Both the position numbers and the translations under genes were made by a program. A stretch of DNA of 39,669 bases, from contig CAZCGV010000001.1 in NCBI GenBank assembly GCA_964498515.1, positions 1 to 39,669 on the forward strand, given 5' to 3'. Positions 13,909 to 13,930 of the stretch are shown piece after piece (the first letter of the stretch is position 1; each line of letters opens with the position of its first letter). The DNA comes from an uncultured Methanosarcinales archaeon (GTDB lineage Archaea > Nanobdellota > Nanobdellia > Woesearchaeales > SKGA01). The notes below the pieces were generated by a model that saw nothing but the letters and a program-made list of their open reading frames with translations, had not been told where the DNA came from and did not search any database.

Positions 13909-13930
13909 CCCCCTTATTTCCTATGGAAAC
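13909..13930 (-). promoter_or_regulatory. ORB-like element A (C-run + TTATTTCCTATGGAAAC; read on minus strand as dyad followed by a G-run)
   Basis: The minus strand reads GTTTCCATAGGAAATAAGGGGG. It has the TTCC-N3-GGAA dyad plus G-string layout of archaeal Orc1/Cdc6 origin recognition boxes. 21 of 24 positions are identical to element B at 39560-39581. Confidence 0.55.

Follow-up and report, generated by a model that had tools for sequence, protein, structure and literature searches.

The 39,669-nt stretch of contig CAZCGV010000001.1 analyzed here, termed the window throughout, is a chromosome segment of a DPANN archaeon (Woesearchaeota) with a GC content of ~30% that ends exactly at a scaffold N-gap. 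By translation, its open reading frames (ORFs) include genes for GyrA, a RadB-like protein, RadA, SecY, a PriS–PriL fusion, Hef, MCM and TBP, and a ribosomal-protein superoperon spanning L3 to L15 lies on its minus strand. Two of its intergenic spacers each hold a minus-strand sequence resembling the origin recognition box (ORB) of the archaeal initiator Orc1/Cdc6: copy 1 separates the divergent p205 and p92–radA genes, and copy 2 lies between a TraB/PrgY/GumN-family gene and the TBP–MCM gene pair. We examined both copies, their surroundings and their counterparts in related contigs and loci (L001–L103).

13906..13930, minus strand: ORB copy 1 (orphan ORB), reading GTTTCCATAGGAAATAAGGGGGTGT, with the dyad at 13917-13929 and the G-string at 13909-13913
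39557..39581, minus strand: ORB copy 2 (satellite ORB, ~1.7 kb from the origin core), reading ATTTCCAGTGGAAATAAAGGGGTAT

The original prediction, made from the sequence alone, had described the two strings as agreeing at 21 of 24 aligned positions and as reading, on the minus strand, as a TTTCC dyad followed by a G-run. Both strings are present and the minus-strand reading holds, but they are 25-mers identical at 20 of 25 positions, and the quoted starts were each off by one. The degenerate 22-mer ACCCCYTTATTTCCNNTGGAAA matches the window at 13908-13929 and 39559-39580 only; shuffled sequences contained a mean of 0.01 matches to it, and two matches were seen in 0 of 100 shuffles, in line with the earlier view that such a pair is unlikely by chance. 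The bare dyad TTTCCNNTGGAAA is not significant in the window (4 matches versus 3.1 expected) and was rejected as the signal, which therefore comes from the dyad, the spacer and the C/G run together.

The assignment of both strings to the ORB type was borne out by comparison with published boxes and with the inverted boxes at the orc1/cdc6 genes of the same genome and its relatives. Copy 2 is identical at 21 of 22 positions, and copy 1 at 18 of 22, to ORB2 of Methanomassiliicoccus luminyensis (GTTCCAGTGGAAATAAAGGGGT), and both conform to the archaeal ORB consensus CTTCCAGTGGAAACGAAAGGGGT (PMC4153887 Table 2). The CCCC...ATTTCCACTGGAA layout of Pyrococcus ORBs is the same as here (PMC1904270), and the classical oriC1-type ORBs of Sulfolobus oriC1, Aeropyrum pernix, Pyrococcus and Methanomassiliicoccales share the TTCCA-N-TGGAAA dyad, the 4-nt spacer and the GGGGT G-string. 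A position weight matrix (PWM) was built from nine orc1-adjacent boxes of L001, L003, L004, L007 and L008, with the window copies left out. It ranked copy 1 (33.4 bits) and copy 2 (17.8 bits) as the top two sites of the window, the third-best site scoring 3.2 bits. The best scores of 400 simulated first-order Markov windows had a mean of 7.2 bits and a maximum of 19.1, so that none attained 33.4 bits, and the probability of a score at or above the 17.8 bits of copy 2 was 0.005 per simulated window. Many copies scattered outside origin contexts would have spoken against an ORB; the matrix found no site of at least 12 bits in the 489 kb surrounding radA in 80 other DPANN loci, and the ORB motif is thus not a common promoter word.

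The initiator encoded nearby fits these boxes. Positions 6881-8113 of L001 encode an Orc1/Cdc6 protein with Pfam Cdc6_lid and Cdc6_C domains, which matches Sulfolobus Orc1-1 (2QBY_A, E=1e-106) and A. pernix ORC1 (2V1U_A, E=2.5e-98), the two proteins crystallized on ORB DNA (2QBY and 2V1U). The helix-turn-helix arginine, the wing arginine and the Gly-Leu of the initiator-specific motif, which were mutated by Dueber et al. (PMC3089459), align to identical residues in the L001 protein. Judged by its sequence, the neighboring initiator is an Orc1-1 orthologue with conserved DNA-contact residues. Only one orc1 gene was seen in the DNA examined, and the window itself holds no paralogue (best tblastn E=9.5). 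Four lines of sequence comparison (published boxes, the initiator, the independent matrix and the conservation described below) thus support both 25-mers as true ORBs.

The orc1/cdc6 gene had been guessed to lie just right of the window, and it was indeed found there, past the gap, on L001, a scaffold from the same study with 14 differences from the window in 10,903 bases. Past the gap, L001 continues with TraB, a TrmB-family gene, a 667-bp spacer, the divergent Orc1/Cdc6 gene, the gene for PolD subunit DP1 and, further on, that for DP2; a third contig with an identical TBP (50-200 kb class) carries mostly the same neighbors and was merged with L001. The 667-bp spacer contains two inverted boxes, TCTCCATAGGAAGTGTTGGTGTG and CTCTATAGGAAATAGTGGTGTG, around ~330 bp of 5-14% GC. 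The boxes read TCTCCATAGGAAGTGTTGGTGTGTGTGGG on the minus strand and CTCTATAGGAAATAGTGGTGTGTCTG on the plus strand, and their dyads point toward the AT-rich stretch. A canonical archaeal oriC consists of an AT-rich unwinding element between inverted ORBs beside the initiator gene (PMC4010727; PMC12141716), and on the strength of this layout oriC is placed ~1.6 kb past the right end of the window, directly upstream of the orc1/cdc6 and PolD genes. These distances follow from L002, a gap-free contig with 0 mismatches to the window in 6,249 bp, in which the sequence hidden by the gap amounts to 684 bp; copy 2 then lies ~1.7 kb, and the window end ~1.6 kb, from the nearer origin box. From the nearest orc1 gene, copy 2 is separated by ~2.2 kb and two genes, and copy 1 by ~28 kb.

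Inverted ORB pairs upstream of orc1 recur in nine further related genomes (10 further loci: L003, L004, L005, L006, L007/L095, L092/L093, L094, L096, L097 and L098), and a single box is found in L008. Between the inverted origin boxes of L092, the GC content falls to 6-16%. As with classical ORBs, the sister boxes of the two copies thus form the inverted-pair, unwinding-element and orc1 arrangement in their own genome, and the origin, though useful to locate, is of an ordinary kind, given that ORBs and origins next to orc1 are textbook knowledge for archaea. The origin boxes of this lineage favor GGTGTGTG tails, whereas the two outlying copies have a purer GGGG(G)T string. Some origin ORBs (L003, L097 and L098) are followed by a GTCTC-like tail.

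The locus of copy 1 comprises the following features:

13787..13815, no strand: GTCTCA/GAGAT repeat cluster I
13861..13907, no strand: repeat cluster II, a three-tier imperfect palindrome (GTCTCA three times, then TGAGA three times) that abuts the G-string of ORB copy 1
13960..13999, no strand: repeat cluster III, GTCTCA twice, then TGAGAT/TGAGAC, just upstream of the p205 TATA box
14005..14016, plus strand: TATA-like box of p205 (TTTATAAAAAAG), conserved in two alignments; putative promoter element
14043..14660, plus strand: p205, coiled coil and C-terminal winged helix; candidate binder of the GTCTCA arrays
13761..13778, minus strand: CACTGGACA / CACTGGCC motif, ~13 nt upstream of the p92–radA TATA box
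13738..13748, minus strand: p92–radA TATA box (GTATATAAATG), conserved in the four-lineage alignment and in RadA loci; putative promoter element
13382..13660, minus strand: p92, small conserved protein, directly upstream of radA
12445..13380, minus strand: radA (RadA/Rad51 recombinase), by translation; Pfam Rad51 and RecA_N on record for the L089 orthologue

Reading from the p205 gene, the order is the p205 TATA box, a palindromic array, the ORB, a second array directly after the G-string (GGGGTGTCTCA), ~100 bp with little conservation, CACTGGACA, ~13 nt, TATATAAA, a strongly conserved leader and p92–radA. This layout is common to four lineages, with a p205-family protein of 172-220 aa. Counterparts of copy 1 scored 32.8 bits in L099–L101 and 21.6 bits in L102/L103; L089 and L091 carry ACCCCCTTATTTCCTGTGGAAACCC or ACCCCCTCATTTCCTGTGGAAACCC, with changes confined to the dyad center and the spacer. 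In the four-lineage alignment, 19 of the 22 ORB columns are invariant, compared with 36% for the whole spacer, a level second only to the p92 leader/Shine-Dalgarno block, and the substitutions in copy 1 are confined to known degenerate ORB positions. The junction between ORB and array is likewise kept, reading GGGGTGTCTCA in L089, L091 and L099 and GGGGGTGTCCCA in L102. Copy 1 lies 75-100 bp from the p205 TATA box and ~165-190 bp from that of radA, distances that are alike in the four lineages. None of the 80 metagenome radA loci (RadA identity up to 77%) carries the ORB, and we therefore rejected it as a DPANN-wide feature of the radA locus; it marks a narrower clade, which was reached through p205 and p92 homologues.

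The notion that the 13.9-kb locus is itself an origin was not supported, and the same applies to either copy. Copy 1 has no AT-rich unwinding element (GC 34-40% in 80-bp windows, versus ~30% for the window and 5-14% at oriC), is a single box with no inverted partner in the window, and has no orc1 nearby; oriC lies elsewhere. The cumulative GC skew, proposed as a check, tracks gene strand and has no feature at 13.9 kb. Its sequence context makes copy 1 an orphan ORB, ~27 kb away from the origin, and does not support it as an origin in its own right. At copy 2, no AT run as extreme as that of oriC was apparent on reading the spacer sequence, the GC content of which was not profiled, and copy 2 and its neighboring mini-ORB stand in direct, not inverted, orientation.

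The iteron clusters said to embed copy 1 are real, with 8 of the 12 GTCTCA/TGAGAC hexamers of the window falling within 13788-13994, but they are a different motif and travel with the p205 gene rather than with the ORB. The three GTCTCA/TGAGAC clusters are conserved, palindromic and operator-like, and are set against TATA boxes. Among the 80 metagenome RadA loci, an array was found in L009 alone, the one locus with a p205 homologue, and syntenic relatives retain the p205 homologue and the array together (array positions: window 13787-13999; L009 3340-3530; L094 16552-16707; L099 2628-2805; L102 960-1125). L009 and L094 contain 15-19 GAGAC repeats; the 19 of L009 are mostly tandem GAGACT copies, a direct arrangement that favors protein binding over RNA or cruciform structures. 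In L102 the repeat unit has become GTCCCA/TGGGAC with the ORB unchanged. Since L009 and L094 have arrays without an ORB and L102 has a shifted unit beside an intact one, the repeats and the ORB are separate elements, and the repeats were rejected as ORB parts or Orc1 half-sites. On this co-variation, p205 and the array are probably a regulator–operator pair whose specificity drifts between lineages. The AlphaFold2 model of p205 (predicted local distance difference test score, pLDDT, 80) has an N-terminal coiled coil and a winged helix at residues 132-196. Its fold matches are generic winged-helix regulators (PadR, Fur and RTP, E above 0.01), and 11 of 38 p205 homologues weakly match Pfam FUR. 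The protein itself has no Pfam or NCBIfam match and no similarity to Rep, Cdt1 or WhiP, and domain and structure searches gave no support for p205 as an initiator of these types.

The partial CCAGTG sites at 13764 and 13773, taken earlier for ORB halves, belong to a separate conserved promoter motif of p92–radA. Of 64 DPANN loci, 45 have CACTGG and then a TATA-like box upstream of p92–radA, against an expectation of 0.07 per 260 bp. In the window and in L009–L088, CACTGGACA is often doubled as ACTGGACACTGGACA, ~13 nt upstream of a TATATAAA/TATTTAAA box, and this distribution makes it look like a widely conserved radA-promoter operator. By tblastn, 70 of the 80 RadA loci show a p92 match upstream of radA. 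The 92-aa protein has more than 490 homologues, all annotated as hypothetical, and no Pfam or NCBIfam match. Its AlphaFold2 model (pLDDT 85.5) consists of four strands and a long helix with weak fold matches to Pur-alpha and single-strand DNA-binding protein (E at least 0.1), and on this model p92 may be a single-strand-binding partner of RadA. The p92 leader TGAAATAAAATGGGATAACCAAGGAG (13667-13692, minus strand) is the best-conserved intergenic block in the four lineages, above the TATA boxes, and holds a tiny ATG-GGA-TAA frame just before the Shine-Dalgarno sequence.

The second spacer, at the right end of the window, contains or borders the following:

39493..39507, minus strand: mini-ORB (dyad only, GTTCCAAAAGAAATT), ~70 bp nearer TBP than copy 2 and in the same orientation; block present in 5 of 5 aligned TraB–TBP spacers
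39411..39457, minus strand: two TATA-like boxes upstream of TBP (distal 39446-39457, proximal 39411-39423)
38767..39333, minus strand: TBP gene, downstream of copy 2 and the mini-ORB; Pfam TBP on record for the identical protein
36626..38668, minus strand: MCM helicase gene, next after TBP; Pfam MCM_N, MCM_OB, MCM and MCM_lid
39601..39669, minus strand: TraB/PrgY/GumN-family gene, last 23 codons (tblastn 100% identity to residues 207-229); cut by the scaffold N-gap, visible in L001

The statement that each locus has one full ORB holds for full ORBs, and the locus of copy 2 has the conserved mini-ORB in addition. Wherever the order orc1–oriC–TrmB–TraB–TBP–MCM is kept, a full ORB stands just past the TraB stop in the same orientation (window/L002, L092/L093, L003 and L094), a position conserved down to 51% TraB identity; examples of these counterparts are TTTTCCAGAGGAAATGAAGGGGTC, TTTTCCAAAGGAAATAAGGGGGT and TTTTCCACAGGAAACCAACGGGTC. 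The counterpart in L095 is weak (10.1 bits), and the satellite box was not found in L096–L098, which keep the origin pair but have no TBP after TraB. Of the two TATA-like boxes, the proximal one has a TTTATAAAT core that is invariant in 5 of 5 spacers, and the distal one is kept in three of the five and degraded in L094 and L095. The GTCTCA hexamer at 39462, upstream of a TBP TATA box, is not kept in L092; we rejected it as a conserved element and take it as chance.

On balance, we consider it probable, if short of certain, that both copies are ORBs of the Orc1-1 class, that neither is an origin, and that their most likely role is extra-origin binding of Orc1, regulatory or accessory in nature, a role that we infer by analogy with other systems. 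Drawing on the solved Orc1–ORB complexes, each box would be occupied by one Orc1 monomer of fixed polarity, the winged helix contacting the TTTCC-N3-GGAAA dyad and the initiator-specific motif of the AAA+ domain the G-string. At copy 1, this would set the AAA+ side of Orc1 against the first GTCTCA repeat, so that Orc1 and the repeat-binding factor, most plausibly p205, would have to touch or compete. Orc1 at copy 1 might then serve the divergent p205 and p92–radA promoters as an architectural co-regulator, or compete with the GTCTCA-binding factor, and at copy 2 it might act likewise on the TBP–MCM promoter. The net effect would be to couple the expression of recombination and replication genes to the level or state of the initiator. 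Since the distances from box to TATA element are alike in four lineages, an architectural or co-regulatory role is favored, with titration or looping as the main rival. A parallel to the composite site is Sulfolobus oriC2 (2QBY), where an Orc1-1 mini-ORB overlaps the C3 site of Orc1-3 and the two proteins are in contact on the DNA, much as copy 1 abuts the putative sites of a second protein; unlike that case, copy 1 neighbors GTCTCA palindromes tied to a coiled-coil winged-helix protein rather than to a second Orc1, and has no origin features.

Several points weigh against this reading. The boxes stand 75-250 bp from the nearest TATA boxes and not over them, so that a simple repressor model does not follow. 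Specific binding of Orc1/Cdc6 to either copy is something we infer from sequence, and an effect on transcription there would be a further step. In Pyrococcus, chromatin immunoprecipitation on arrays (ChIP-chip) found oriC to be practically the sole Cdc6 site and isolated mini-ORBs to be unbound, while full ORBs bind well in vitro (PMC1904270). Among relatives, copy 1 is documented as conserved only in fairly close ones (p92 identity of at least 82%), and the more distant L009 and L094 have the p205 homologue, the repeat array and p92–radA with no ORB there, which means that the ORB is not essential to the p205–array–radA module. The orc1 neighborhood was read on L001, which is 99.9% identical to the window, and not on the window's own scaffold. 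Moreover, L002 (1-950) departs from L001 (8114-8427) midway through the AT-rich region, continuing with an unrelated 317-aa membrane-protein fragment where L001 has orc1; this divergence at the origin reflects either misassembled low-complexity DNA or a strain-level rearrangement.

Precedents for the favored reading come from several systems, among them the ORB clusters of Pyrococcus dp1 and Haloarcula oriC2 that are taken up below, which lie outside origin cores. Bacterial DnaA boxes occur in promoters, the initiator there doubling as a transcription factor. Orc1-2, a Sulfolobales Orc1 paralogue, recognizes a short ANTTTC-type motif and not the classical ORB. Its function is that of a DNA-damage transcription regulator (PMC9738581). 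Both cases place an AAA+ winged-helix initiator family at replication or repair promoters, like the role proposed for copy 1 (radA) and copy 2 (TBP–MCM), but Orc1-2 is a non-initiator paralogue and the sites here are classical ORBs. The genome of 'Ca. Methanomassiliicoccus intestinalis' is reported to contain orphan ORBs, located downstream of ftsZ and of nifH/nifE (PMC4153887 Table 2); those were listed without conservation or context, whereas the orphan here is fixed between arrays in four lineages. Relative to classical ORBs, the copies here are single, without an AT-rich unwinding element, 1.7 kb and 27 kb from the core, and located in promoter-bearing spacers. The association of copy 1 with radA is suggestive by analogy with Thermococcales, in which radA lies beside oriC and cdc6 and the RadA level trades off against oriC use (PMC11005403).

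Less ordinary than the origin, then, are full-length ORBs conserved outside it, before the genes for RadA and TBP–MCM, and the base-for-base fusion of copy 1 to arrays tied to a lineage-specific winged-helix protein; the iteron–ORB–iteron unit upstream of radA is itself a modestly interesting part of the finding. If Orc1 binds at these sites, they would offer a handle on whether and how archaeal initiators regulate genes, and would bear on the balance between origin-dependent and RadA-dependent replication, a balance of recently demonstrated importance in Thermococcus (PMC11005403). Members of the DPANN are uncultured, with minimal genomes, and sites defined by sequence can be tested in vitro with recombinant proteins.

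Among the alternatives, the one that fares best, though we hold it unlikely, is that the outlying boxes bind Orc1 for control of the origin, either as titration or sink sites or by looping with the origin core. Only 1.7 kb separate the core from copy 2 and the mini-ORB, which are oriented as the nearer core box; copy 1 has the same polarity. In E. coli, datA is an initiator titration site outside the origin core. In Haloarcula hispanica, an ORB cluster downstream of oriC2 restrains the origin (PMC4010727), and the Pyrococcus dp1 ORB cluster, conserved among relatives and a couple of kb from the core, is bound by Cdc6/Orc1 in vivo (PMC1904270). Copy 2 with its mini-ORB is the closest analogue of the dp1 cluster here, and both precedents show outlying ORBs near origins; the Haloarcula cluster and datA likewise lie outside the core and act on the origin rather than firing. 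Yet the Haloarcula cluster and datA comprise several boxes, compared with one or two per site here, each beside a promoter, and one or two sites have little titration capacity. The Pyrococcus cluster lies inside coding sequence on the orc1 side, whereas the boxes here are intergenic, on the other side of the origin and upstream of TBP–MCM; a matrix scan for a dp1 ORB cluster in relatives found weak sub-threshold sites at most (L094 at 3781, 8.4 bits; L098 at 2101, 11.5 bits). Copy 2, in turn, occurs only where TBP follows TraB and is absent from L096–L098, a distribution that links it with the TBP promoter region or with the lineage, and the base-precise, conserved junction of copy 1 with the GTCTCA array points to local interplay with another DNA-binding factor and not to a passive sink.

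A more doubtful alternative makes the 13.9-kb locus a second origin of hybrid type, in which p205 would bind the iterons as a plasmid-like initiator or co-initiator and the single ORB would recruit Orc1 and thereby MCM, the module having been captured from an extrachromosomal element. The arrays are iteron-like, lie beside the gene for a small DNA-binding protein and form a lineage-specific insertion upstream of p92–radA; the repeat differs by lineage (GTCTCA versus GTCCCA in L102), as for an initiator–iteron pair; and L099 and L102 have ~100 bp of AT-rich DNA beside their arrays. Archaeal chromosomes are, moreover, known to acquire replicator–initiator pairs from extrachromosomal elements (PMC4010727). 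Against this stand the absence of an AT-rich unwinding element at copy 1 in the window, the generic winged helix of p205, the ORB-less arrays of L009, and the isolation of the box, given that firing of Sulfolobus oriC1 is abolished by loss of either flanking ORB (PMC12141716). A canonical oriC lies only 27 kb away, and a rightward fork from copy 1 would be expected to meet the minus-strand ribosomal-protein superoperon head-on. A blastn search of 12000-16500 against phage and plasmid collections returned no match; with a ribosomal-protein superoperon, SecY, MCM, TBP and RadA, the DNA is that of a cellular archaeal chromosome, and a mobile-element source was rejected. We rate just as low a bolder reading, in which the p205–iteron–ORB unit would be a captured iteron-type hybrid replicator that gained a classical ORB, p205 and Orc1 together licensing a second, conditional origin beside radA, or, more mildly, the sole Orc1 would double as a transcription factor with the ORBs as its operators at radA and TBP–MCM; were the milder form true, recombination and helicase supply would be wired to the state of the initiator.

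Least probable of all is that the ORB likeness is coincidental or that the copies are relics bound by another factor or by nothing, left for example by an old rearrangement that split radA from a radA–oriC–orc1 unit: the adjacency of radA to oriC and cdc6 in Thermococcales (PMC11005403), the L094 radA module only ~10 kb from oriC and the unbound isolated mini-ORBs of Pyrococcus (PMC1904270) are compatible with it, but both copies are full ORBs and not mini-ORBs, 19 of 22 columns are invariant against 36% for the spacer, substitutions are limited to degenerate ORB positions, and the matrix test excludes chance.

Searches of the window with Rfam (gathering thresholds) and ARAGORN detected no structured RNA and no tRNA. 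Within ~35 kb around the origin (window 14674-39333 and L001 1-8113) lie the genes for PolD, Orc1, MCM, an OB-fold protein (p226), Hef and primase, together with the ribosomal-protein superoperon, and the members of this cluster left of the origin are all transcribed away from it. Clustering of replication and translation genes has been described for Archaea, and the cluster here fits that description (PMC2643942). The primase gene (29866-31881, minus strand) encodes a 671-aa chain that joins the primase small-subunit, primase large-subunit and C-terminal NUDIX domains, with versions of 445-670 aa in relatives. The DP2 subunit of L092/L093 (L092 1-3691) is a 1677-aa protein with an intein (Intein_splicing and LAGLIDADG matches), and that of L001 (1-3287) is a 1206-aa protein with neither match. 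An 833-aa GyrA-like protein is encoded at 4749-7250 (plus strand), recognized by reading the translation alone; no gyrB was recognized among the ORFs read, a reading not backed by a domain search. Two TrmB-family regulators, at 9535-10350 of the window (minus strand) and at 8781-9565 of L001, are 57% identical overall and nearly identical in their N-terminal DNA-binding halves; one stands beside the origin and the other three genes downstream of radA.

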